From the NCBI RefSeq assembly GCF_044704955.1, contig NC_091988.1, positions 162,192,001 to 162,256,000 on the forward strand: a stretch of 64,000 nucleotides of DNA, in the 5' to 3' direction. The notes below the pieces were generated by a model. That model searched no databases. It was not told the DNA's origin and saw only the letters and a list, made by a program, of their open reading frames with translations. Origin of the DNA: Pristiophorus japonicus. Its lineage: Eukaryota. Each line of letters begins with the position of its first letter. The stretch's first letter is position 1. The position numbers were made by a program, and so were the translations under genes. Positions 10,428 through 54,756 of the stretch are shown here, one piece after another.

Positions 10428-10750
10428 CAGGTGTGACCTCAGTCATTGGGGGGAGGGGAACAGTCAGGTGTGACCTGAGTTAGTGGGGGGAAGGGGTCAG
10501 GTGTGACTTCAGTCACTGGGGAGAAGGGTCAGGGATGACTCAGACACTGGGGGGGCAGGGGTCAAGTGTGACCTCAGTCATTGCAGGGGAGGGGTCAGCT
10601 ATGACTTGTCACTGGAGGGGAGTGAGAATGTGTGAACTTAGTCACTGGGGTGAGTGGAGTCAGCTGTGACCACAGTCACTAAGTGAGCATGGGCTCAGAT
10701 GTGGCCTCAGTCACTGGGCGGGGAGGGGTCAGATGTGACCTCGGTCACAG
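10428..10750. repeat. Degenerate ~32-bp minisatellite, about 10 units
   Basis: Repeated caggtgtgacctcagtcactggggggaggggt-like unit. Confidence 0.85.
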
Positions 10751-11575: not shown

Positions 11576-12155
11576 TGGGCTTGGAATGTTTAATCCTATC
11601 TCTCTTGGAGCGTAGTTCCCTGCTGGGAGTTTGGGATCTCGGAATTTACGCTTCTGAGTAATGGTTATAAAAGAGAACAAAATATGATATAGTGGGTGAA
11701 AATACCTTGTGTGTTAATTGTGCATTAATTGTCTGTTAATATGCAGTAATTTGGTGCATTAGAATTAGTTGAGAATTAGAATTTTTTTTTCCATTTCCCA
11801 AAATTCCTTCTAGGACTGACTCTGTTTGATGTACGTTAATGCACTTAACAATTTATTGACTTGATATATACCAGTTAAAGGGGAAGTGCAATGCAACTCA
11901 AGCTTGTCTTCCAGCTTTCACTGCATGATTAAGCTTGCAGAGTTGGCTGCTTCTCTTCCGCGGCTACATTCGAGTCAGGGTGTCCCTGGAGATAGAGCAC
12001 GCAGTGTCCACCGGTACGGACACAGCCTTCCGCGAGAGGTGGGCACCGGAGGGACTGGAGTGCATCATCAGCCCCCGGCAACCAAATTTTAATTTCATCC
12101 ATTTAATGTTAAAAGTTAAATTTATTTAATTTGTTGGTTTTAGTGCCCCTTTAAT

Positions 12156-13496
12156 GGGCCCAAGTTTGCCCCCAGGGTTAGAACGGCGCATCTCTGTGTG
12201 GTGCACCGACTTTTTGAAACAGAAACAGCGTGTATTATTTACCTTGGTATTCTCCCCTCCGTCTGGTCAATCCAGGCCAAGCCCGGTGGAGGGCGGAGCG
12301 AGGTCCCGGCGCTGAAAACAGTGCCGGCACCTCTGCACATGCACGCTGGAGTGTGCATGCATGTGCAGTAGCTCCAGGACCCGAGGCGGCGTGGGAGGGG
12401 CCGAAGCACTCCGCCCCTAGCCATGGCCGAATGGGGCCTCCTTCCCTCCTCCCCGTTTAGCTCCCACTCACCCCCGCTTCCTCCCTCCCATTTAGCTCCT
12501 GCTCCCCACCGCCCCCCCCACACAATGTCATCGTTGGTGGGGCCCGACCAGCATCTTGCTGGGGGAGGGCCCTGCCCGAAGTCTTCGGCGGCCCGGCTTG
12601 GCTTCTACATCCTCGGCGGGGCCCGCCCGCCCCGCCCGAAGTCTTCGGCGCGGCCCGTTCAGCCTCCCTCTACCCACCTCTCCTCTTCCCCCCCTCTCCT
12701 CCTCCTCCCCCTCCTCTCCCCCTCCCCTCCCTCCTCTCTCCCTTCCCCCTCCTCCCTCCCTACCCCCTCTCTCCTTCCCTCCCTACCCCCTCCCTCCCTC
12801 CCCCTCTTCTTCTCCCTCTCCCTCCCCCTCCTCTCTCCCCTCCCCTCCCTCCTCTCTCTCCCTTCCCCCTCCTCCCTCCCTACCCCCTCTCTCCCTACCC
12901 CCTCCCTCTCCCTCTCCCCCTCCCCCTCGCTGTCAGAAACACAGAGAGACACTGACAGAGAGAGAGACACTGGGGGGGCCCCATCCCAGCATGCTGTTGG
13001 AGGGCTCCGAGTGTTGCAGTCGGTGAGTAGAAACGTAATTTTTTATTTATTGATTTTTTTTTAATTTTCTTTTTATTTTTAATTTTTTGATTTTTTTTGA
13101 TTGATTTATTGATTTATTTATCATTTATTATTGATGATGGCTTTTTGTTTGTAAAAGTGAAGTGTTAAATGTTTGTAAACCCCCCTCCCCCCCCCCATCT
13201 CTTGTTCTCTACGCCTGATTTAGAAGTGTAGGCAAGGTTTTTCTGAGCATACAAAAATCTACACTTATTCCATTCTAAGTTAGTTTGGAGTAAATTTTCA
13301 CTGCCTAAACTTGCAAAACTGCCATAAGTATCTGGACATGCCCCCTTCTGGAAAAAAAATCTGTTCCACAATAGAACTATTGTAACTCACTCGAACTGGA
13401 GCAAACTAAATGCCGAGAATTGCAGTTTCTAAGATGCTCCATTCGAAACTAGTTGTTCCAAAAAAATAGGAGCAACTCGGGCCGAAACTTGAGCCC
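12156..13496. mobile_element. PIF/Harbinger-type non-autonomous DNA transposon
   Basis: TIRs gggcccaagtttg / cgaaacttgagccc; 3-bp TSD AAT at 12153-12155 and 13497-13499; the flanks rejoin into a continuous Tx1 3' UTR. Confidence 0.85.
12663..12928. repeat. Polypyrimidine/polypurine low-complexity tract
   Basis: ~265 bp almost entirely C/T, with an internal repeated ~45-bp block. Confidence 0.95.
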
Positions 13497-14034
13497 AATA
13501 AGGGGGCATTTAATTTATAGGTTCAACTAAAATAGTTGCAGAGTTGGCCGAGGTTCAGGATGGAACAGAGCAGGAGACATGAAAAATGGCTGAACTGTTT
13601 CAGTCCATATACCAGCCCTGGCCCATCAACTGATCTCATTCAGCTGGATATGTAGGGGAGCCGCATTGAGGGAGAGTTAGCGTCTTCCAAAGCCATAGGT
13701 GGAGATCACCAGGATCCAAGGCAGCATGTTTATCACTGGTGCCAGAACTGTCTCAACCTCAATGCGGAGGATTGCATGAAGAGGATACAGCTCATAAGTG
13801 AAGCCTTCTCCTGGAACTAGATCTGGAACCAAGAGCAATATTAGTACAGGTTTTACGACTTTGTTTTTGCAAGGTTCTTATCTTTCTAAGTACTTTTTGT
13901 CAGGCTTAACTCATTATAGCAATGATATCTCTGGCTTGTGGTAATCTGGAGCCTATCTCCAATTGCACTGAAGCTGTCCATTATTGCATCATGGGGAGCA
14001 ACTAACCGTCTTGTCCTTTCATTTCCCACAGCCT

Positions 14035-15142: not shown

Positions 15143-18100
15143 GGGGCCGAAGTTTCCCCCTTTTATAACTCCGTTAGTGCCTCCGGGGGCTGCTAACGGG
15201 ACGAAATGGAGTTTTCGCCTGGGGGAGGGGGTGCTACCGCCTCCTGGGAAATTGCCCCGGAGGTTTGAGGGGGTGCTGTCCCGGCAGCACCGCAGTTAGC
15301 GCCCCGGGCCGGTGCGCAATTGGCAATGATACCATTGCCGTGCGTGGCAAACCCTCACCACCCCACGCCGACACCTTTCCGCCCCACGGGGTTAATTGCT
15401 CCGCAGGCCGGGAGGCTGGCGTGGATGGATGTCAACGCTAGCTTCGCGGGTGTCGGGCAGCTGGACGGGTCGATCGCATCCCTGGTGGCCCAGTGGCGGC
15501 CAGCAAAGGGCCTGCAGAGTGGACAGAGGTCCTCCCCTTTCATGGAAGGAGGCCCCTTAAAGGAAACGCAGCATCGGAGACAGCGCTCCGCTTCCTTTGT
15601 GGGGCGTACGGCTCAATTCCGCATCAGGGGCAGTACTTCCCGTCTGGGTGCAGGAAGTCCCCGTCCTGAAGGTTACTGCCCCCAATAAGAACATAAGAAT
15701 TAGAATTAGGAACAGGAGTAGGCCATCTAGCCCCTCGAGCCTGCTCCGCCACTCAACAAGATCATGGCTGGTCTGGCCATGGACTCGGCTCCACTTACCC
15801 GCCCACTCCCCATAACCTTTAATTCCCTTATTGGTTAAAAATCTATCTAGCTGTGATTTGAATACATTCAATGAGCTAGCCTCAACTGCTTCCCTGGGCA
15901 GAGAATTCCACAGATTCACAACCCTGTGGGAGAAGAAATTCCTTCTCAACTCGGTTTTAAATTGGCTCCCCCGTATTTTGAGGCTGTGCCCCCTAGTTCT
16001 AGTCTCCCCGACCAGTGGAAACAACCTCTCTGCCTCTATCTTGTCTATCCCTTTCATTATTTTAAATGTTTCTATAAGATCCCCCCTCATCCTTCTGAAC
16101 TCCAACGAGTAAAGACCCAGTCTACTCAATCTATCATCATAAGGTAACCCCCTCATCTCCGGAATCAGCCTAGTGAATCGTCTCTATACCCCCTCCAAAG
16201 CTAGTATATCCTTCCTTAAGTAAGGTGACCAAAACTGCACGCAGTACTCCAGGTGCGGCCTCACCAATACCCTGTACAGTTGCAGCAGGACCTCCCTGCT
16301 TTTGTACTCCATCCCTCTCGCAATGAAGGCCAACATTTCATTCGCCTTCCTGATTACCTGCTGCACCTGCAAACTAACTTTTTGGGATTCATGTACAAGG
16401 ACCCCCAGGTCCCTCTGCACCGCAGCATGTTGTAATTTCTTCCCATTCAAATAATATTCCCTTTTACTGTTTTTTTTTCCCAAGGTGGATGATCTCATAT
16501 TTTCCGACATTGTATTCCATCTGCCAAACCTTAGCCCATTCGCTTAACCTATCTAAATCTCTTTGCAGCCTCTCTGTGTCCTCTACACAACCCGCTTTCC
16601 CACTAATCTTTGTGTCATCTGCAAATTTTGTTACACTACCCTCTGTCCCCTCTTCCAGGTCATCTATGTATATTGTAAACAGTTGTGGTCCCAGCACCGA
16701 TCCCTGTGGCACACCACTAACCACCGATTTCCAACCTGAAAAGGACCCATTTATCCCGACTCTCTGCTTTCTGTTAGCCAGCCAATTCTCTATCCATGCT
16801 AATACATTTCCTCTGACTCCGCGTACCTTTATCTTCTGCAGTAACCTTTTGTGTGGCACCTTATCGAATGCCTTTTGGAAATCTAAATACACCACATCCA
16901 TCGGTACACCTCTATCCAACATGCTCGTTATATCCTCAAAGAATTCCAGTAAATTAGTTAAACATGATTTCCCCTTCATGAATCCATGTTGCGTCTGCTT
17001 GATTGCACTATTCCTATCTAGATGTCCCGCTATTTCTTCCTTAATGATAGCTTCAAGCATTTTCCCCACTACAGATGTTAAACTAACCGGCCTATAGTTA
17101 AATGCCTTATGTCTGCCCCATTTTTTAAACAGAGGCGTTGCATTAGCTGCTTTCCAATCCGCTGGTACCTCCCCAGAGTACAGAGAATTTTGGTAGATTA
17201 TAACGAATGCATCTGCTATAACTTCCGCCATCTCTTTTAATACCCTGGGATGCATTTCATCAGGACCAGGGGACTTGTCTACCTTGAGTCCCATTAGCCT
17301 GTCCAGCACTACCCCCTAGGGATAGTGATTGTCTCAAGGTCCTCCCTTCCCACATTCTCGTGACCAGCAATTTTTGGCATGGTTTTTGTGTCTTCCACTG
17401 TGAAGACCGAAGCAAAATAATTGTTTAAGGTCTCAGCCATTTCCTCATTTCCCATTATTAAATCCCCCTTCTCATCTTCTAAGGGACCAACATTTACTTT
17501 AGTCACTCTTTTCCGTTTTATATATCGGTAAAAGCTTTTACTATCTGTTTTTATGTTTTGCGCAAGTTTACTTTCGTAATCTATCTTTCCTTTCTTTATT
17601 GCTTTCTTAGTCATTCTTTGCTGTCGTTTAAAATTTTCCCAATCTTCTAGTTTCCCACTAACCGTGGCCACCTTATACGCATTGGTTTTTAATTTGATAC
17701 TCTCTTTTATTTCCTTGGTAATCCACGGCTGGTTATCCGTTCTCTTACCGCCCTTCTTTTTCACTGGAATATATTTTTGTTGAGCACAATGAAAGAGCTC
17801 CGTAAAAGTCTCCCACTGTTCCTCAATTGTGCCATCGTTTAGTCTGTGTTCCCAGTCTACTTTAGCCAACTCTGCCCTCATCCCACTGTAGTCCCCTTTG
17901 TTTAAGCATAGTACGTTCGTTTGAGACGCTACTTCCTCATCCTCAATCTGTATTACAAATTCAACCATACTGTGATCGCTCATTCCGAGAGGATCTTTTA
18001 CTAGGAGATCGTTTACTATTCCTGTCTCATTACACAGGACCAGATCTAAGATAGCTTGCTCCCTTGTAGGTTCTGTAATATACTGTTCTAAAAAACAATC

Positions 18101-18216
18101 CCGTATGCATTCTATTAATTCCTCCTCAAGACTACCCCATGCGATTTGATTTAACCAATCGATATGTAGGTTAAAATCCCCCATGATTACAATCGGGGCG
18201 AAGGCAATTTTGAGTC
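15143..18216. mobile_element. Harbinger-type MITE interrupted by a CR1 (15687-18190)
   Basis: Left end ggggccgaagtttcccc; GC-rich body to 15686; remainder aatcggggcgaaggcaattttgagtc after the CR1; CAAT on both sides of the CR1. Confidence 0.6.
15687..18190 (-). mobile_element. CR1 LINE (subfamily B), 5'-truncated inside the APE domain
   Basis: Minus-strand ORFs 17309-18184 (MGDFN, SDH), 16464-17309 ([28 protein letters not shown]) and C-terminal fragments; (TTCTTATG)n tail. Confidence 0.96.
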
Positions 18217-36183: not shown

Positions 36184-37131
36184 ATGGCAGGAGAGCTCGG
36201 ACATGTGTTATGCTCCTCCTGTCATATGTGAGAAGTCAGGGATGCTTCCAGTGTCCCTGACGACGACATGTGCGGGAGGTGCATCTGCCTGCAGCTCCTG
36301 ACAGACCGCATTGCGGCACTGGAGCTGCGGGTGGATATACTCTGGAGCATCCACGATGCTGAGAATGACGTGAATAGCACGTTTAGTGAGTTGATCTTAC
36401 CGCAGGTAAAGGGTACACAGCCAGATAGGGAATGGGTGACCAACAGGAAGAGTAGTGGAAGGAAGGTAGTGCAGGGGTCCCCTGCTGTCATTCCCCTGCA
36501 AAACAGATACACCGCTTTGGGTACTGTTGGGGGGATGACTCATCAGGGGAAGGAGCAGCAACAGCCAAGTTCATGACACCATGGGTGGCTCTGCTGAGCA
36601 GGAGGGCAAGAAAAAGAGTGGGAGAGCTATAATGACAGGGGATTCAATTATACGGGGAAAAGATAGACATTTCTGCGGCCGAACTGAGACTCCAGGATGA
36701 TATGTTGCCTCCCTGGTGCAAGGGCCAAGGATGTCTTGGAGCGGGTGCAGGGCATTCTGAAAAGGGAGGGTGAACAGCCAGTTGTCGTGGTGCATATAGG
36801 TACCAACGATATAGGTAAAAAACGGGATGAGGACCTACAAGACGAATTTAGGGAGCTAGGAGCTAAATTAAAAAGTGGGACCTCAAAAGTAATAATCTCA
36901 GGATTGCTACCAGTGCCACATGCTAGTCAGAGTAGGAAGTGCAGGATAGCTCATATGAATACGTGGCTTGAAGAGTGGTGCAGAAGGGAGGGATTCAAAT
37001 TCCTGGGACATTGGAACCGGTTTTGGGGGAGGTGGGACCATGACAAACCGAACTGTCTGTACCTTCGCAGGACCAGAACTAATGTCCCAGGGGGAGTGTT
37101 TGCTAGTGCTGTTGGGGAGGAGTTAAACTAA
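36184..37131 (+). pseudogene. CR1 ORF1 (zinc finger/leucine zipper + SGNH esterase), disrupted
   Basis: MAGELGHVLCSSC..CGRC..LQLLTDRIAALELRV; GDS, CLPGA and VHIGTND esterase motifs; one early stop and frameshifts. Confidence 0.9.
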
Positions 37132-40099
37132 TATGGCAGGGGGATGGGAACCTATGCAGAGATACACAGGTAAGTAGAATGGGGGCAGAAGCAAAAGATT
37201 GAAAAAAGAAAATTAAAAGTGGAGGGCAGAGAAAACTAAGGCAAAAAGCAAAAAGGGCCACATTACAGCAAAATTCTAAAGGGGCAAAGTGTGTTAGAAA
37301 GACAAGCCTGAAGGCTCTGTGCCTCAATGCAAGTAGTATTCGGAATAAGGTGGACGAATTAACTGCGCAGATAGCAGTTAACGGGTATGATGTAATTAGC
37401 ATCACGGAGACATGGCTCCAGGGTGACCAAGGCTGGGAACTCAACATCCAGGGGTATTCAACATTTAGGAAGGATAGACAGAAAGGAAAAGGAGGCGGGG
37501 TGGCATTGCTGGTTAAAGAGGAAATTAATGCAATAGTAAGAAAGGACATTAGCTTGGATGATGTGGAATCGGTATGGGTGGAGCTACGGAATACCAAAGG
37601 GCAGAAAACGCTAGTGGGAGTTGTGTATAGACCATCAAACAGTAGTAGTGAGGTTGGGGACAGCATCAAACAAGAAATTAGGGATGCATGCAATAAAGGT
37701 ACAGCAGTTATCATGGGTGACTTTAATCTACATATTGATTGGGCTAACCAAACTGGTAGCAATGCAGTGGAGGAGGATTTCCTGGAGTGTATTAGGGATG
37801 GTTATCTAGACCAATATGTCAGGGAATCAACTAGGGAGCTTGCCATCCTAGACTGGGTGATGTCTAATGAGAAAGGACTAATTAGCAATCTTGTTGTGCG
37901 AGGCCCCTTGGGGAAGAGTGATCATAACATGGTAGAATTAAGATGGAGAGTGACGCAGTTAATTCAGAAACTAGGGTCCTGAACTTAAGGAAAGGTAACT
38001 TCAATGGTTTGTGGTGTGAATTGGCTAGAATAGACTGGCAAATTATACTTAAAGGGTTGACGGTGGATAGGCAATGGCAAACATTTAAAAATCACATGGA
38101 TGAACTTCAGCAATCGTACATTCCTGTCTGGAGTAAAAATAAAACAGGGAAGGTGGCTCAACCGTGGCTAACAAGGGAAATTAAGGATAGTGTTAAATCC
38201 AAGGAAGAGGCATATAAATTGGCCAGAAAAAGCAACAAACCTGAGGACTGGGAGAAATTTAGAATTCAGCAGAGGAAGACAAAGGGTTTAATTAAGAGGG
38301 GGAAAATAGAGTTCGAGAAGAAGCTTGCCGGGAACATAAAAACTGACTGCAAAAGCTTCTATAGATATGTGAAGAGAAAAAGATTAGTGAAGACAAACAT
38401 AGATCCCTTGCAGTCGGATTCAGGTGAATTTATAACGGGGAACAAAGAAATGGCAGTCCAATTGAACAAATATTTTGGTTCTGTCTTCACGAAGGAAGAC
38501 ACAACTAACTTTCCAGAAGTACTAGGGGACCTAGTGAGAAGGAGGAACTGAAGGATATCCTTATTAGGCGGGAAATTGTGTTAGGGAAATTGATGGGATT
38601 GAAGGCCGATAAATCCTCGGGGCCTGATAGTCTGCATCCCAGAGTACTTAAGGAAGTAGCCCTAGAAATAGTGGATGCATTGTGATCATTTTCCAACAGT
38701 CTGTCGACTCTGGATCAGTTCCTATGGACTGGAGGGTAGCTGATGTCGCACCACTTTTTAATAAGGGAGGGAGAGAGAAAGCAGGTAATTGTAGATCGGC
38801 TAGCCTGACATCAGTAGTGGGGAAAATATTGGAATCAATTATTAAGGATGAAATAGCAGCGCATTTGGAAAGCAGTGACAGGATCGGTCCAAGTCAGCAT
38901 GGATTTATGAAGTAGAAATCATGCTTGACAAATCTTCTGGAATTTTTTGAAGATGTAACTAGTAGAGTGGACAAGGGAGAACCAGTGGATGTGGTGTATT
39001 TGGACTTTCAAAAGGCTTTTGACAAGGTCCCACATAAGAGATTGGTGTGCAAAATCAAAGCACATGGTATTGGGGGTAATATACTGACGTGGATAGAGAA
39101 CTGGTTGGCAGACAGGAAGCAGAGAGTCGGGATAAATGGGTCCTTTTCAGAATGGCAGGCAGTGACTAGTGGAGTGCCGCAGGGCTCAGTGATGGGACCC
39201 CAGCTCTTTACAATATACATCAATGATTTAGATGAAGGAATGGAGTGTAATATCTCCAAGTTTGCAGATGACGCTAACTGTGTGGCGATGTGAGCTGTGA
39301 GGGGGACGCTAAGAGGCTGCAGGGTGACTTGGACAGGATAGGCGAGTGGGCAAATACATGGCAGATGCCGTATAATGTGGATAAATGTGAGATTATCCAC
39401 TTTGGGGGCAAAAACGCGAAGACCGAATATTATTTGAATGACGGCAGATTAGGAAAAGAGGAGGTGCAACGAGACCTGGGTGTCATTGTTCATCAGTCAT
39501 TGAAAGTTGGCATACAGGTGCAGCAGGCGGTGAAGAAGGCAAATGGTATGTTGGCCTTCATAGCTAGGGGATTTGAGTATAGGAGTAGGGAGGTCTTACT
39601 GCAGTTGTACAGGGCCTTGGTGAGGCATCACCTGGAATATTGTGTTCAGTTTTGGTCTCCTAATCTGAGGAAGGATGTTCTTGCTATTGAGGGAGTGCAG
39701 TGAAGGTTCACCAGACTGATTCCTGAAATGGCTGGACTGACATATGAGGAGAGACTGGATCAACTGGGCCTTTATACATTGGAGTTTAGAAGGATGAGAG
39801 TGGATCTCATAGAAACATATAATATTCTGACGGGACTGGACAGGGTAGATGCGGGTAGAATGTTCCCGATGTTGGTGAAGTCCAGAACCAGGGGACACAG
39901 TCTTAGGATAAGGGGTAGGCCATTTAGGACTGAGATAAGGAGAAACTTCTTCACTCAGAGAGTTGTTAACCTGTGGAATTCCTTGCCGCAGAGAGTTGTT
40001 GATGCCAGTTCATTGGATATATTCAAGAGGGAGTTAGATATGGCCCTTATGGCTAAGGCGTTCAAGGGGTATGGAGAGAAAGCAGGAAAGGGGTACTGA
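37122..40099 (+). pseudogene. CR1 ORF2 (APE endonuclease + reverse transcriptase), disrupted
   Basis: ITETWL, GGGVALL, MGDFN, SDH; [25 protein letters not shown]; fragmented across several ORFs. Confidence 0.95.
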
Positions 40100-45987: not shown

Positions 45988-46824
45988 CATAAGAATATAA
46001 GAACATAAGAACATAAGAATTTGGAACAGGAGTAGGCCATCTAACCCCTCGAGCCTGCTCCGCCATTCAACAAGATCATGGCTGATCTGGCCATGGACTC
46101 AGCTCCACTTACCCGCCTGCTCCCCGTAACCCTTAATTCCATTATTGGTTAAAAATCTATCTATCTGTGATTTAAATACATTCAATGAGCTAGCCTCAAC
46201 TGCTTCCCTGCGCAGAGAATTCCACAGATTCACAACCCTCTAGGAGAAGAAATTCCTTCTCAACTCGGTTTTAAATTGGCTCCCCCGTATTTTGAGGCTG
46301 TGCCCCCTAGTTCTAGTCTCCCCGACCAGAGGAATCAACCTCTGTGCCTCTATCTTGTCCAGCCCTTTCATTATTTTAAATGTTTCTAGAAGATCACCCC
46401 TCATCCATCTGAACTCCAATGAGTAAAGACCCAGTCTACTCAATCTATCATCATAAGGTAACCCTCTCATCTCCGGAATAAGCCGAGTGAATCGTCTCTG
46501 TACCCCCTCCAAAGCTAGTATATCCTCCCTTAAGTAAGGTGACCAAAACTGCACGCAGTACTCCAGGTGCGGCCTCACCAATACCCTATACAGTTGCAGC
46601 AGGACCTCCCTGCTTTTGTACTCCATCCCTCTCGCAATGAAGGCCAACATTCCATTCGCCTTCCTGATTACCTGCTGCACCTGCAAACTAACTTTTTGGG
46701 ATTCATGCACAAGGACCCCCAGGTCCCTCTGCATCGCAGCATGTTGTAATTTCTCCCCATTCAAATAATATTCCCTTTTACTGTTTTTTTTTCCAAGGTG
46801 GATGACCTCACATTTTCCGACATT
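45988..46824 (-). mobile_element. CR1 subfamily B 3' fragment nested in CR1-A
   Basis: (TTCTTATG)n tail at 45988-46020; ORF 46240-46764; CAT at both junctions. Confidence 0.92.
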
Positions 46825-49800
46825 ATAAATTCACCTGAATCCGACTGCAAGGGACTTACGTTTGTCTTTACTAATCTTTTTCTCTTCACATATTTATAGA
46901 AGCTTTTGCAGCCAGTTTTTATGTTCCCTGCAAGCTTCCTCTCGTACTCTATTTTCCCCTTCTTAATTAAACCCTTAGTCCTCCTCTGTTGAATTCTAAA
47001 TTCCTCCCAGTCCTCAGGTTTGTTGCTTTTCTAGCCAATTTATATGCCTCTTCCTTGGTTTCAACACTATCCTTAATTTCCCTTGTTAGCCATGGTTGAG
47101 CCACCTTCCCAGTTTTATTTTTACTCCAGACAGGGATGTACAATTGCTGAAGTTCACCCATGTGATCTTTAAATGTTTGCCATTGCTTATCCACCGTCAA
47201 CCCTGCTGCCACGAGCTAGTAAGAGTAGGAATCGCAGGATAGCTCAGATGAATACGTGGCTTGAGCAGTGGTGCAGCAGAGAGGGATTCAAATTCCTGGG
47301 GCATTGGAACCGGTTCTGGGGGAGGTGGGACCAGCACAAACCGGACAGGACCGGAACCAATGTCCTAGGGGGAGTGTTTGCTAGTGCTGTTGGGGAGGAG
47401 TTAAACTAATATGGCAGGGGGTTGGAACCAAGACAGGGAGACAGAGGGAAACAAAATGGAGACAAAAGCAAAAGACAGAAAGGAGATGAGTAAAAGTGGA
47501 GGGCAGAGAAACCCAAGGCAAAAAACAAAAAGTGCCACTGTACAGCAAAATTCTAAAGGGTCAAAGTGTAATAAAAAGGCAAGCATGAAAGCTCGGTGCC
47601 TCAATGCAAAGAGTATTCGGAACCCAGGAGAGGGCTCTGAGCTAGTTCGAGTGGGTGAGAGCTCAGATGAACAGGACCCCAAGAAAGAATGCAAAAGGCA
47701 GGAGGCAACAGAGCAGAGTAGCAATGGGGTAAGTGTAAACCACAAGGTGATAGGAAGGGACAATATGTATGAATATAAAGGGGCTGCAGGAGGGGTCAAA
47801 ACTAAAAATCATGGTTTAAAAACTAGTATTAAAACACTCTACCTAAACGCACGCAGCATTCGAAATAAAGTAAATGAGTTGAAGGCACAAATCATTACAA
47901 ATGGGTATGATTTGGTGGCCATTACAGAAACGTGGTTGCAGGGGGGCCAAGACTGGGAATTAAACATACAGGGGTATCTGACAATTCGGAAAGATAGACA
48001 AGAAGGGAAAGGAGGTGGAGTAGCTCTGTTAATAAAGGATGATATCAGGGCAGATGTGAGAGACGATATTGGCTCTAATGAACAAAATGTTGAATCATTG
48101 TGGGTGGAGATTAGAGATAGTAAGGGGAAAAAGTCACTGGTGGGCGTAGTTTATCGGCCCCCAAATAATAACTTCATGGCGGGGCGGGCAATAATCAAGG
48201 GAATAATGGAGGCATGTGAAAAAGGAACGGCAGTAATTATGGGGGATTTTAACCTACATATCGATTGGTCAAATCAAATCGCACAGGGTAGCCTTGAGGA
48301 AGAATTCATAGAATGCATACGGGATTGTTTCTTCGAACAGTATGTTACAGAATCGACAAGGGAGCAAGCTATCTTAGATCTGGTCCTGTGTAATGAGAAA
48401 GGAATAATGAACGATCTCCAAGTAAAAGATCCTCTCGGAATGATTGATCACAGTATGGTTGAATTTGTAATACAGATTGAGGGTGAGGAAGTAGTGTCTC
48501 AAAAGAGCGTACTATGCTTAAACAAAGGGGACTACAGTGCGATGAGGGCAGAGTTGGTCTAAGTAGCCCCGAAACACAGACTAAAGGGTGGCACAATTGA
48601 GGAGCAGTAGAGGACTTTTAAGGAGCTCTTTCATAGTACTCAACAAAAATATATTCCAGTGAAAAAGAAAGGCGGTAAGAGAAGCGATAACTAACCGTGG
48701 ATAACCAAGGAAATAAAGGAGAGTATCAAATTAAAAACCAATGCGTATAAAGTGGCCAAGGTTAGTGGGAAACTAGAAGATTGGGAACATTTTAAACGAC
48801 AGCAAAGAATGACTAAGAAAGCAATAAAGAAAGGAAAGATAGATTACGAAAGTAAACTTGCGCAAAACATAAAAACAGATAGTAATAGCTTTTACCGATA
48901 TATAAAACGGAAAAGAGTGACTAAAGTAAATGTTGGTCCCTTAGAAGATGAGAAGGGGGATTTAATAATTGGAAATGTGGAAATGGCTGAGACCTTAAAC
49001 AATTATTTTGCTTCGGTCTTCACAGTGGAAGACACAAAAACCATGCCAAAAATTGCTGGTCACGGGAATGTGGGAAGGGAGGACCTTGAGATAATCACTA
49101 TCACGAGGGGGATAGTGCTGGACAAGCTAATGGGACTCAAGGTAGACAAGTCCCCTGGTCCTGATGAAATGCATCCCAGGGTATTAAAAGAGATGGCGGA
49201 AGTTATAGCAGATGCATTCGTTATAATCTATCAAAATTCTCTGGACTCTGGGGAGGTACCAGCGGATTGGAAAGCAGCTAATGTAACGCCTCTGTTTAAA
49301 AAAAGGGGGCAGACAAAAGGCAGGTAACTGTAGGCCAGTTAGTTTAACATCTGTAGTGGGGAAAATGCTTGAAGCTATCATTAAGGAATAAATAGCGGGA
49401 CATCTAGATAGGAATAGTGCAATCAAGCAGACGCAACATGGATTCATGAAGGGGAAATCATGTTTAACTAATTTACTGGAATTCTTTGAGGATTTAACGG
49501 GCATGGTGGATAGAGGTGTACCGATGGATGTGGTGTATTTAGATTTCCAAAAGGCATTCGATAAGGTGCCACACAAAAGGTTACTGCAGAAGATAAAGGT
49601 ACGTGGTGTCAGAGGAAATGTATTAGCATGGATAGAGAATTGGCTGGCTAACAGAAAGCAGAAAGTCGGGATAAATGGGTCCTTTTCGGGTTGGAAATCA
49701 GTGGTTAGTGGTGTGCCACAGGGATCGGTGCTGGGACCACAACTGTTTACAATATACATAGATGACCTGGAAGAGGGGACAGAGTGCAGTGTAACTAAAA

Positions 49801-50036
49801 TTGCAGATGACACAAAGATTAGTGGGAAAGTGGGTTGTGTAGAGGACACAGAGAGGCTGCAAAGAGATTTAGATAGGTTAAGCGAATGGGCTAAGATTTG
49901 GCAGATGGAATACAATGTCGGAAAATGTGAGGTCATCCACCTTGGAAAAAAGAACAGTAACAGGGAATATTATTTGAATGGGGAGAAATTACAACATGCT
50001 GGGGTGCAAAGGGACCTGGGGGTCCTTGTGCATGAA

Positions 50037-51256
50037 ACTCTTTTGAGTTTACCTGAAAATAAACATAAACATTAAACCGTGCCACCCGCCTGGGTGACAC
50101 AGCAGACATTTTCAAGGCCCTTTTTTTTTTTTTGTTTTTTTTTGGGGCGCTAAAATCAAATTTTTTCCAGTGCCCCCTATAAAAGGGGAGGGGGACACTA
50201 AAAGCACCGACAATTAAAACAAATTAAACTTTAAAACGTAAAATCAAATTAAAATTTGGTTGCCGGGCGTGATGATGCACTCCAGTCCCTCCGGTGCCCA
50301 CCTCTCGCGGAAGGCCGCGAGCGTACCGGTGGACACCGCTTGCTCCATCTCCAAGGACACCCTGGACCGGATGTAAGAGCGGAAGAGAGGCAGGCAGTCA
50401 GGTTGAACGACCCCCTCGACCGCCCGCTGCCTGGACCGGCTGATGGCACCCTTGGCCGTGCCCAGGAGCAGTCCTACGAGGAGGCCTTCGGACCTACCCG
50501 CTCCCCTCCGCACAGGGTGCCCAAAGATCAGGAGAGTGGGACTGAAGTGCAGCCAGAATTTCAGGAGCAGCCCCTTCAAATAATAAAACAGGGGCTGCAA
50601 CCTTGTGCATTCCATAAAAACATGGAACACGGACTCTTCCAGACCGCAGAAATTGCAGGCGGCCTGGGAGTCCGTGAACCGGCTTAAAAATTTGTTGCAC
50701 GGCACTGCTCCGTGCACCACCCTCCAGGCCAAGTCCCCGATGAATAGTGGGAGGACCCCTGCGTAGAGTGCCCTCCATCGGGGACCCCCGCCTCCTCCGG
50801 ACGGCAAGCTGGTACGCCATGGCGTGTCCGGACGTCCGGCGAGGATGGCAAAGTTGAGGGTGTGCAGGAGCAGCCCGTACAGGAAACCCCTCCGCGCGGA
50901 ACTGAAAGGCACGGAGGGGATTTCCCCGAGGCGGCTCAAGTTGTGAGGCGCCGGCCCCCGAGGGAGGTTCCGGGGTTTGGCGCCGATGAGGAATTCCGTC
51001 CGGACGGGGGTCAGTTCGGACAGGATCTCCCCACGTGCTTGAGTCTCCTCGATGCACCTAACGGAGTCAGGGCCCAGAGCTGTTTTTAGCGACTCGATGG
51101 CATCGGCCGCGTGGCGGACATTGGCAGAATTTAGGCGCCGCGCCAGCGTGTCTGGCGCCATCCAGCCCGCTCCTCCGCCATCGAGCAGGTCCCTGACCCT
51201 GGTCACCTCACCAGCCACAGCCCTCTCTTTCGACCGCCACATAAAACCTCGGCCGT
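50037..51256 (-). mobile_element. Tx1-clade retrotransposon copy 1, 5'-truncated (ORF2 C-terminus + 207-nt 3' UTR)
   Basis: WRVVHGAVPCN and CCHC zinc knuckle CNFCGLEESVFHVFMEC; stop at 50244; flanked by ggtccttgtgcatgaa. Confidence 0.93.
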
Positions 51257-51272
51257 GGTCCTTGTGCATGAA

Positions 51273-52492
51273 ACTCTTTTGAGTTAACCTGCAAAACATA
51301 AAACATGTATCCGTGCCACCCGACCTGGATGACACACACAAGACATTTACAAGGCCCTTTTTTTTTTTTTTTTTGGGCACTAAAATCAAATTTTTCCTTT
51401 TTCCAGTGCCCCCTATAAAAGGAGAGGGGGACACTAAAAGCACCGGCAATTAAAACAAATTAAACTTTAAAACGTAAAATCAAATTAAAATTTGGTTGCC
51501 GGGCGTGATGATGCACTCCAGTCCCTCCGGTGCCCACCTCTCGCGGAAGGCCGCGAGCGTACCGGTGGACACCGCGTGCTCCATCTCCAAGGACACCCTG
51601 GACCGGATGTAAGAGCGGAAGAGAGGCAGGCAGTCAGGTTGAACGACCCCCTCGACCGCCCGCTGCCTGGACCGGCTGATGGCACCCTTGGCGGTGCCCA
51701 GGAGCAGTCCTACGAGGAGGCCCTCGGACCTACCCGCTCCCCTCCGCACAGGGTGCCCAAAGATCAGGAGAGTGGGACTGAAGTGCAGCCAGAATTTCAG
51801 GAGCAGCCCCTTCAAATAATGGAACAGGGGCTGCAACCTTGTGCACTCAATAAAAACATGGAACACGGACTCCTCCAGACCGCAGAAATTGCAGGCGGCC
51901 TGGGAGTCCGTGAACCGGCTTAAAAATTTGTTGCACGGCACTGCTCCGTGCACCACCCTCCAGGCCAAGTCCCCGATGAATAGTGGGAGGACCCCTGCGT
52001 ACAGTGCCCTCCATCGGGGACCCCCGCCTCCTCCGGACGGCAAGATGGTACGCCATGGCGTGTCCGGACGGCCGGCGAGGATGGCAAAGTTGAGGGTGTG
52101 CAGGAGCAGCCCGTACAGGAAACCCCTCCGCGCGGAACTGAAAGGCACGGAGGGGATTTCCCCGAGGCGGCTCAAGTTGTGAGGCGCCGGCCCCCGAGGG
52201 AGGTTCCGGGGTTTGGCGCCGATGAGGAATTCCGTCCGGACGGGGGTCAGTTCGGACAGGATCTCCCCACGTGCTTGAGCCTCCTCGATGCACCTAACGG
52301 AGTCAGGGCCCAGAGCTGTTTTTAGCGACTCGATGGCATCGGCCGCGTGGCGGACATTGGCAGAATTTAGGCGCCGCGCCAGCGTGTCTGGCGCCATCCA
52401 GCCCGCTCCTCCGCCATCGAGCAGGTCCCTGACCCTGGTCACCTCACCAGCCACAGCCCTCTCTTTCGACCGCCACATAAAACCTCGGCCGT
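51273..52492 (-). mobile_element. Tx1-clade retrotransposon copy 2, same 5' truncation point
   Basis: Same motifs; stop at 51480; flanked by ggtccttgtgcatgaa at 51257-51272 and 52493-52508. Confidence 0.93.
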
Positions 52493-52508
52493 GGTCCTTG
52501 TGCATGAA

Positions 52509-52520
52509 ACTCTTTTGAGT
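52509..52520 (-). mobile_element. 10-12 nt Tx1 terminal micro-insertion
   Basis: actcttttga(gt), identical to the 3' terminus of both long copies, followed by a fourth target copy gtccttgtgcatgaa (52519-52533). Confidence 0.8.
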
Positions 52521-54756
52521 CCTTGTGCATGAATCCCAAAAAGTTAGTTTGCAGGTGCAGCAGGTAATCAGGAAGGCGAATGGAATGTTGGCCTTCATTG
52601 CTAGAGGGATGGAGTACAAAAACAGGGAGGTCCTGCTGCAACTGTATAGGGTATTGGTGAGGCCGCACCTGGAGTACTGCGTGCAGTTTTGTTCACCTTA
52701 TTTACGGAAGGATATACTAGCTTTGGAGGGGGTACAGAGACGATTCACTCGGCTTATTCCGAAGATGAGAGGGTTACCTTATGATAATAGATTGAGTAGA
52801 CTGGGTCTTTACTCGTTGGAGTTCAGAAGGATGAGGGGTGATCTTATAGAAACATTTAAAATAATGAAAGGGATAGACAAGATAGAGGCAGAGAGGTTGT
52901 TTCCACTGGTCGGGGAGACTAGAACAGCCTCAAAATACGGGGGAGCCAATTTAAAACTGAGTTGAGAAGGAATTTCTTCTCCCAGAGGGTTGTGAATCTG
53001 TGGAATTCTCTGCCTAAGGAAGCAGTTGAGGCTAGCTCATTGAATGTATTCAAATCACAGATAGATAGATTTTTAACCAATAAGGGAAATAAGGGTTACT
53101 TGGAGCGGGCTGGTAAGTGGAGCTGAGTCCACGGCCAGATCAGCCATGATCTTGTTGAATGGCGGAGCAGGCTCGAGGAGCTAGATGGCCTACTCCTGTT
53201 CCTAATTCTTATGTTCTTCTGTTCTTATGTTTAAGTATCCTCTGCCAGTCTATTCTAGCCAATTCACACCTCATACCATCGAAGTTACGTTTCCTTAAGT
53301 TCAGGACCCTAGTTTCCGAATTAACTTTTTCACTCTCCATCTTAATAAGGAATTTTACCATATTATGGTCACTTTTCCCCAAAGGGCCTCGCACAACAAG
53401 ATTGCTAATTAATCCCTTCTCATTACACATCAGCCAGTCTAGGATGGCCAGCTCCCTGGTTGGTTCCTCGACATATTGCTCTCGAAAACCATCCCTAATA
53501 CACTCCAGGAAATCCTCCTCCACCGCATTGCTACCAGTTTGGTTAGCCCAATCTATATGTAGATTAAAGTCGCCCACGATCACTGTTGTACCTTTATTGC
53601 ACACATCCCTTATTTCTTGTTTGATGCTGTCCCCAACCTCACTACTACTATTTGGTGGTCTGTACACAACTCCCACTAACGTTTTCTGCCCTTTGGAATT
53701 CCGCAGCTCCACCCATACCGATTCCACATCATCCAGGCTAATGTCCTTCCTTACAATTGCATTGATTTCGTCTTTAACCAGCAACGCCACCCTGCCTCAT
53801 TTTCCTTTCTGTCTATCCTTCCTAAAAGCTGAATACCCTTGGATGTTGAGTTCCCAGCCTTAGTCACCCTGGAGCCATGTCTCCGTGATGCCAATTACAT
53901 CGTATCCGTTAACTGCTATCTGCGCAGTTAATTCATCCACCTTATTCCAAATACTCCTCGCATTGAGGCACAGAGCCTTCAGGCTTGTCTTTTTAACACA
54001 CTTTGCCCCTTTTGAATCTTGCTGTAATATGGCCCTTTTTGCTTTTTGCCTTGGGTTTCTCTGCCTTCCACTTTTACCATTCTCCTTTCTATCTTTTGCT
54101 TCTGCCCCCCTTCTATTTCCCTCTGTCTCCCTGCATAGCTTCCCGTCTCCCTGCATAGCTTCCCATCCCCCTGCCATATTAGTTTAACTCCTCCCCAACA
54201 GCATTAGCAAACACTCCCCCTAGTATTGGATAAGATTATTCTTCTAAAGCTGATTTTTTTCCGAGTCTCATTCTGAAGGTTATATTTCCACACGCTGTAC
54301 TTTTGTTGCTGGTCACACTGGGGTTTCCCGCAGCTTTCTCAACACTGCAGGAGCAGAACTCAGTTGTAATCAAAATGCAATGCAGACAAATAAAACCCAA
54401 TGTAAGAAAGGTTTCTTTGAGCACCACAGTGTGCTTCATCAATGGGCTGTAGGTGGTTCAATTTGACTAGCCAAAGGCACAAGTTTTAGTGCTTAAAAGG
54501 AAAGAAAAGTCCATGAATGTATTCTGTTCAAGGGACTTTCCCCATCAGTGTTTGAACAAAAAAATGTAGTTTCGAAACATACTTTACCTGCAGATTGCAT
54601 GTGTCCCGAGTGACTCGATGCTGGTTTGTAGGGGCCAGTCCTTCACAGCCTGGCAGCTGATCTGAAGCCTAGACAAACACTAAAGCTAGCTTTGTAACCA
54701 TTCACACCACTACATATAGACTTTCATCATTTTGAATCTCTGAAGTGATGCCATCA

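Follow-up and report, generated by a model that had tools for sequence, protein, structure and literature searches.

How two copies of a retrotransposon can share the base at which they are 5′-truncated and yet carry different 3′ ends is the question raised by a locus in the 64,000-nucleotide stretch of Pristiophorus japonicus DNA analysed here (hereafter the window; NCBI RefSeq assembly GCF_044704955.1, contig NC_091988.1, positions 162,192,001 to 162,256,000 of the forward strand). Inside a long interspersed nuclear element (LINE) of CR1 type, a second LINE, labelled Tx1-like with fair confidence from its sequence, occupies a single target site as a tandem array of two long units, A and B, and a short stub. 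We consider it probable that the array arose through repeated site-specific insertion at a regenerated target, followed by homology-based copying of one 5′ end. The host and the array comprise the following features, in window coordinates.

47205..53231, + strand: host CR1-type LINE, with an APE endonuclease, a reverse transcriptase (RT) and an 8-mer repeat tail; it carries stops and frameshifts and has 2.4% private divergence
50021..50036, + strand: target copy 1, exact 16-mer of CR1 open reading frame 2 (ORF2) sequence; the 15-bp duplication is 50022-50036
50037..51256, − strand: unit A, a 5′-truncated Tx1-like LINE with its 3′ end at 50037, probably the older resident
51257..51272, + strand: target copy 2, exact 16-mer between A and B and common to both
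51273..52492, − strand: unit B, truncated as in A but of a different 3′ lineage, probably newer and mosaic
52493..52508, + strand: target copy 3, exact 16-mer
52509..52520, − strand: stub, the 3′ terminus of the element only, 10 nt long (52509-52518), or 12 nt if the 2 nt overlapping target copy 4 are counted
52519..52533, + strand: target copy 4, the last 15 bases of the 16-mer, followed by intact CR1 sequence

The array runs target, unit A, target, unit B, target, stub, target on the strand opposite to the host CR1, within the RT region of the latter. Units A and B are each 1220 bp long with a period of 1236, their equal length being partly a coincidence of indels that cancel. The target positions, the two spacers, the period and the 10-12 nt stub described in the first-pass annotation were all reproduced, and comparison of the junctions confirmed that both long copies are truncated at the same base, with an identical 5′ junction. 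A given 15-mer is expected by chance about 1e-4 times in 64 kb, and no N occurs anywhere in the window. The earlier description of the target as 16 bp holds for the repeated 16-mer, but the duplication is better read as 15 bp (range 14-16) plus a 1-nt microhomology with the element at the first base of target copy 2, because the 16th target base, where it meets the 5′ junction, opens a His codon, and His is found at this residue in several homologues too. The duplication at the stub, 13-15 bp, agrees with the 15-bp cut of the long units, and the 5′ junction of the stub shows a 2-nt microhomology.

The signature of target-primed reverse transcription (TPRT) is present, in that all three inserts begin at the same 3′ base and are 5′-truncated, with duplications of 14-16 bp and microhomologies of 1-2 nt; terminal poly(A) is absent. 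The first-strand nick would lie at the right end of target copy 1 on the + strand. Each tandem junction carries one target duplication, as expected of double insertions, but the distinct 5′ truncations by which these are also diagnosed (McGurk and Barbash) were not found, the junction being common to A and B and only the stub differing. Simple double insertion is thus insufficient, since A and B have one common junction. An aborted priming is the simplest account of the stub, whose complementary DNA (cDNA) is predicted to fold on itself at 12-14 nt into a weak hairpin (−2 to −4 kcal/mol); this is suggestive only as a reason for an abort at 12 nt.

That the target copies are true insertion duplications, as the first-pass annotation had argued from one empty site, is supported by two sister CR1 copies.

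46702..46717, − strand: empty target in a sister CR1 copy, exact match
16388..16403, − strand: empty target in a second sister CR1 copy, one mismatch

The site is present once and empty in both close sister copies, and five more distant CR1 copies spanning it are diverged there and uninterrupted. That two to three insertions fall on one nucleotide means that either the endonuclease is specific or the same nick was used more than once; three are found at one nucleotide here, and none of the seven other CR1 copies spanning the site is occupied. The host matched the Pfam endonuclease and RVT_1 models, and its 8-mer repeat tail is degenerate compared with those of the sister copies; its assignment to the CR1 clade is presumptive and follows the first-pass annotation.

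The best evidence for different source lineages is provided by the 3′ tails, which can be set beside a third, related copy in the window.

50037..50119, − strand: structured 3′ tail of A, with an outer stem, an inner stem-loop and a terminal hairpin with an A4 loop; fold z −4.5
51273..51357, − strand: structured 3′ tail of B, folded as in A, with a two-sided A-U to U-G change; fold z −2.7
11935..13548, + strand: copy C, short, Tx1-like and related at 83% identity; a 13-bp duplication (11935-11947/13536-13548) borders it and a DNA transposon splits it

The A tract of the element is internal, at 50121-50143 in A, upstream of the tail and about 84 nt from the 3′ end. Between the tails of A and B, 8 substitutions and 5 indels are counted in 86/87 nt (7 substitutions over 79 aligned sites in an alternative alignment), a divergence of about 9-10%, or about nine times the ORF rate (Fisher p 5e-5; Poisson p 1e-5 to 2e-4), confirming the heavy divergence of the terminal ~85 nt noted previously. 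The changes at paired positions include the two-sided one, A-U to U-G, and one from G-C to G-U, and when the same number of changes was introduced at random, the ensemble pairing survived equally well in 11/2000 (p 0.0055) and 0/2000 trials. Tail divergence and this preservation of the fold (p 0.006 and <0.0005) both support the second source lineage for the 3′ ends that the first-pass annotation had proposed, and we read the tails as having probably diverged as working RNAs in separate source elements. If so, it follows that at least two RNAs were reverse-transcribed at the site and that the common 5′ end would have been copied between the units by homology.

The Rfam scan of 49800-52800 gave eight matches, all far below the gathering scores, indicating that neither the target nor the tail is a known RNA family. 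A transduced target flank as the source of the 83 nt after the A tract found neither an Rfam match nor another copy in the window, and the recurrence of the hairpin-type end of the A/B tail in copy C weighs against it. The terminal A-loop hairpin is common to A, B and copy C, and its 3′ arm takes in the first TT of the target, suggesting that RNA and primer may pair over a short stretch at an AA 3′ end. A resemblance of the element's 3′ end to the CR1 bases after the target was not collinear and was judged to be chance.

The coding part of the two units carries the second line of evidence.

50244..51257, − strand: C-terminus of ORF2 in unit A, 337 codons, open, with a zf-RVT zinc-binding motif (weak match)
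50836..51256, − strand: 5′ block of A common to B, 1 difference in 421 bp
52072..52492, − strand: 5′ block of B common to A, with the switch or crossover probably at or 5′ of the difference at 52071 (element orientation)

Both long units keep the 337-codon C-terminus of ORF2 open, with no stop or frameshift. Over 1013 bp of ORF they differ at 12 positions, 7 of them synonymous; the 5′-most 421 bp hold a single difference, which is non-synonymous, and the other 592 bp hold 11, including all 7 synonymous ones, in exact agreement with the counts made at first pass. By segment, 1 difference falls in the first 421 bp, 10 in the middle 379 bp and 1 in the last 213 bp of the ORF, which is near-identical in A and B and conserved in copy C too, and the proximal untranslated region (UTR) shows 2% divergence plus a 6-nt indel. 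The divergence is patchy, not a monotonic gradient. What stands of the gradient claimed earlier is the common 5′ block (p 0.008-0.06, depending on which differences are counted), with p 0.015-0.05 in a test tied to the 5′ end of the ORF. None of the 12 ORF differences is a CpG transition, whereas local CR1 decay would lead one to expect 24% (p 0.04).

Residues were polarised using 164 aligned stretches from 156 proteins, 35-115 of which cover each site. In three of the five amino-acid differences the homologues side with B and A carries the derived state, namely at A72 (14/35 homologues), H306 (31/78, with Q in none) and position 150 (mostly hydrophobic); the other two fall at variable positions. 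The A-derived set includes the single difference within the 5′ block; once these three changes are set aside, every one of the other nine falls 3′ of the 421-bp block (p 0.008, or p 0.023 for synonymous differences alone).

Only the ORF2 C-terminus is present in the units, and the RT domain lies outside them. The zf-RVT match (E 1.9e-5, 25.6 bits) is below the 27.5 cut-off. Endonuclease and RT are both present in three full-length homologues of 28-31% identity, zf-RVT in two of these as well, and the best long homologue of the unit ORF is 62% identical. P0169 has 33% identity to the unit ORF over 243 aa (E 2e-34), and its cluster (90%) includes XP_078791710.1, named ‘transposon TX1 uncharacterized 149 kDa protein’; XP_078791710.1 itself gave no match, and a Tx1-type name was carried by one of ten clusters looked up. 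The closest named relatives of the inserted element are from sea turtles, sturgeon and teleosts. Bacterial and archaeal genomes scanned for stray copies confirmed 0/103 pattern matches.

Considering these results, we propose the following scenario. A Tx1-like LINE would have nicked the CR1 sense strand after the 15-bp site, its cDNA growing along the + strand from the right end of the target copy, and TPRT would have given the 5′-truncated A together with a 15-bp duplication. This duplication would restore an intact target on the 5′ side of A, where an RNA of a different active source lineage would insert as B. The 5′ part of B, 421 bp or more, would then be replaced by or completed from A, with the truncation point and junction inherited, making B a mosaic. 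A third, abortive priming at the rebuilt target would leave the 10-12 nt stub. We infer the order A, B, stub because the target on the 5′ side of A kept intact CR1 sequence after it and because R1 re-inserts into the duplication at the 5′ end of the resident (PMC2718515). As the route of copying, unequal exchange after insertion is our tentative choice, slightly likelier than completion during insertion: B would insert with a truncation of its own; misaligned pairing with the A of a homologue or sister without B, followed by a single crossover or conversion, would then give A, target, a unit joining the 3′ part of B to the 5′ part of A, and target. Our preference stems from the fact that each step of this route has been described, in the unequal exchange that follows double insertion and in the recombination arrays of MoTeR.

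Several results weigh against this scenario. Retention of canonical pairs in the tail is not significant (p 0.42 and 0.055), and 5/29 pairs of the A tail are broken in B. In the ORF alone, uniformity is not rejected (Kolmogorov–Smirnov [KS] p 0.11-0.15), nor is a free change-point test significant (p 0.15-0.21), and the near-identity of the last 213 bp is only partly explained by its conservation in copy C. The synonymous bias put forward in the first-pass annotation stands as a count (7/12) but is weaker than implied: p 0.02-0.08 depending on the mutation model, 0.086 against a local yardstick of decayed CR1 copies (25/76 synonymous), and hence marginal by itself (p 0.02-0.09). That A is older than B is weakly indicated by three against no damaging changes (p 0.25 by our own arithmetic) and by the R1 precedent. 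The stub is possibly a product of slippage between target copies. The basis is one haplotype at one locus with no further copy of the A/B subfamily: protein searches for same-family copies gave 1, 9 and 464 matches, 150 of the last being listed, and the best are 55-76% identical, none exceeding 76% among the matches listed. For that reason the homologues polarise residues but cannot type subfamilies, no difference is assignable to a subfamily and no crossover can be mapped to a donor.

The closest competitor alters only the copying step and may be regarded as a sub-case of the same scenario. Following a nick after target copy 2, about 800 nt of cDNA would be made from the second RNA; its end would anneal to the opposite strand of A 1.2 kb back and copy the 5′ part of A plus the target, after which it would be ligated at the nick, with no need for a second-strand cut, and the loop would be fixed by replication. 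A single switch would then yield the whole structure, including the identical junction and the microhomology, and the first-pass suggestion that a second RNA primed at the nick and switched to or recombined with the resident works best in this form, with B as the newcomer, because a start at target copy 1 would by default exchange no more than the 3′ end of the resident, as would priming next to a resident B on the side where A lies. Chimeras between cDNA and endogenous L1 were reportedly described by Gilbert in 2005. Pairing of L1 cDNA with nearby homologous DNA produces templated insertions (10.1101/2024.08.27.596794), and Tf1 cDNA recombines with resident copies into hybrid tandems (PMC11042837), though no direct precedent for a site-specific element lacking long terminal repeats (a non-LTR element) was found in the literature searched. 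Nothing in the window separates loop-back from unequal exchange, since both predict the same haplotype and one haplotype cannot tell them apart, and we hold loop-back to be possible but unlikely. More doubtful still is the wider proposal of a CR1-specialised Tx1 family that builds arrays by second-nick-free loop-back completion on a neighbouring copy.

The remaining explanations are less probable than either route. Tandem duplication via a short flanking repeat, followed by gene conversion of one 3′ end from another family copy, would account simply for the identical junction, and B is indeed flanked on each side by a 28-bp direct repeat of target plus stub (16 bp without the stub); however, the tails would still demand a second lineage, a rare short-homology duplication would have to be joined by a conversion tract running through the most diverged part to the end of the element, and flanking homology exists for A only, and only with a donor in the same CR1 site, so that we regard this as improbable. 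Little weaker a case, and still improbable, is a dispersed non-autonomous 1220-bp family of fixed 5′ end, with A and B as members: read-through RNA carrying the target at its 5′ end would propagate it, each insertion therefore finishing at the same base. Precise 5′ junctions do result from target sequence upstream on R1 transcripts (PMC2718515) and Tx1-mobilised SINEU forms such tandems (PMC4494074), but the frame is fully open in both units, and the differences tend to be synonymous and to fall outside the 5′ block, a pattern for which a long-lived non-coding family would need further recombination, and a third copy with the same 5′ end was not found in the window. Two alleles merged into a false tandem by the assembly would fit the long near-identical block, the equal unit lengths and a locus known from assembled sequence alone; since a single target copy, without any duplicated flank, makes up the whole join, the array, at 2.5 kb, is short for long reads, the window holds no N, and alleles with a common 5′ end but 10%-diverged structured tails would still need inter-lineage recombination, such an artefact is very unlikely. 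Least credible of all is plain tandem duplication with neutral decay. The first-pass annotation had set it aside because it predicts uniform divergence, and this argument survives only in part: the ORF differences alone keep uniformity (KS p 0.11-0.15) with a marginal synonymous excess (p 0.086), but the roughly ninefold divergence of the tail with its fold kept (p 5e-5) leaves plain duplication poorly supported, as do the lack of CpG transitions and of any stop or frameshift in either unit.

The scenario of repeated insertion and copying has partial parallels. In crocodilians, Tx1-Mar/SINEU-3 in Mariner-N4_AMi shows a 16-bp duplication sandwiched in tandems, read as sequential insertion; the Tx1 targets listed in the same report comprise a DNA transposon, LTR elements, Harbinger, microsatellites and U2, and a family is counted as target-specific when >20% of its flanks lie in one repeat type (PMC4494074). 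There, as here, Tx1 or Tx1-like machinery acts at one site in another abundant transposon and tandems form around one duplication, but the target there is a DNA transposon and not, as at this locus, the RT region of a CR1-type LINE, and truncated LINE copies with a common truncation and mosaic ancestry are not part of that system as described. The R1 arrays of Drosophila 28S ribosomal DNA (rDNA) likewise involve a site-specific APE-type LINE, re-insertion and a duplication between units (14 bp in R1), and R1 dimers grow by unequal exchange after double insertion (10.1101/158386). R1, however, belongs to another clade and targets an RNA gene, and its double insertions are diagnosed by distinct truncations, whereas here the truncations are identical and the 3′ parts differ.

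Arrays of MoTeR at Magnaporthe telomeres resemble the present one as site-specific non-LTR arrays with identical truncation positions and junctions, which are ascribed to displacement-loop (D-loop) recombination (PMC7367193); unlike here, D-loop or break-induced replication acts at chromosome ends, and no two-lineage mosaic is described in the available part of that report. Tf1 insertion at resident Tf2, which is integrase-independent and gives hybrid tandem units (PMC11042837), and templated insertions of L1 share with our scenario the recombination of new cDNA with resident or nearby homologous DNA. However, Tf1 is an LTR element with free cDNA, the templated pieces of L1 are mostly <250 bp of non-L1 DNA, and neither case, as described in the parts available, joins re-targeting of a regenerated site to copying of the 5′ end of a neighbour. 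Tandem building at a common duplication (Tx1-mobilised SINEU-3, R1) and arrays with identical truncations are thus already known; new here is that a Tx1-like tandem sits at a LINE target and has a unit that is probably mosaic. In titles and the starts of abstracts, with Repbase outside the search, no Tx1 targeting CR1 and no same-truncation mosaic Tx1 dimer was found.

The resolution of LINE insertion, including completion of the 5′ end and the need for a second nick, is poorly understood (PMC10760644). A site-specific family that hits its own rebuilt target again sets a homologous template beside the nick, and the share of same-truncation mosaics among dimers would therefore measure completion of cDNA on a neighbour. 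The locus could help to tell whether copying occurs during insertion or afterwards. If unequal exchange was the route, it is a neat but unsurprising case of double insertion plus recombination. If there is indeed a Tx1 family aimed at a CR1 coding site, LINE-on-LINE parasitism is added to the known Tx1 targets, and if that family also builds arrays by loop-back, each round would add a mosaic unit with the truncation of the resident, shuffle lineages and disable a competing LINE.

The host CR1 itself lies in an older element.

46823..54221, − strand: older LINE from a second CR1-type family, in two pieces (46823-47204 and 53230-54221) on either side of the host CR1

This outer LINE is continuous across the host CR1, which rules out a single ectopic crossover between CR1 loci. 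Phasing of the left and right CR1 flanks against the sisters had no power (both 4.8%; three-way comparison over only 126 bp on the left). Nesting within 46823-54221 has three levels in alternating orientation: the old LINE, the host CR1, which has no evident duplication, and the Tx1-like array. The 5′-most 400 bp of the host (47207-47622) match the other CR1-type family at 81-84% (36914-37345 and 53945-54223); this match includes an endonuclease start lying before the host's own endonuclease, giving a chimeric 5′ end. The sister CR1 copies at 15685-18190, 45994-46827 and 47205-53231 are related in a star-like manner, with 2.3-2.4% private changes each and a weak CpG excess among them (~1.8-fold), and their equal divergence suggests one burst.

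Copy C lies at a non-CR1 site, its flank has no match elsewhere in the window, and it covers only two of the A/B substitutions. Its 3′ UTR, much shorter than those of A and B, lacks both the A tract and the long stem, although it ends in an A-loop hairpin resembling theirs. A stretch of about 70 nt surrounding the ORF stop hardly varies between the subfamilies and is perhaps an RNA recognition signal. The hairpin in the 3′ UTR of copy C is interrupted at 12156-13496 by a 1341-bp non-coding, DNA-transposon-like insert, present as a single copy in the window, with terminal inverted repeats of ~12 bp and a 3-bp duplication, which we take to be Harbinger-like. The window as a whole is repeat-rich with many LINE copies, and 10428-10748 is a degenerate minisatellite of about 10 copies of a 33-35 bp unit.

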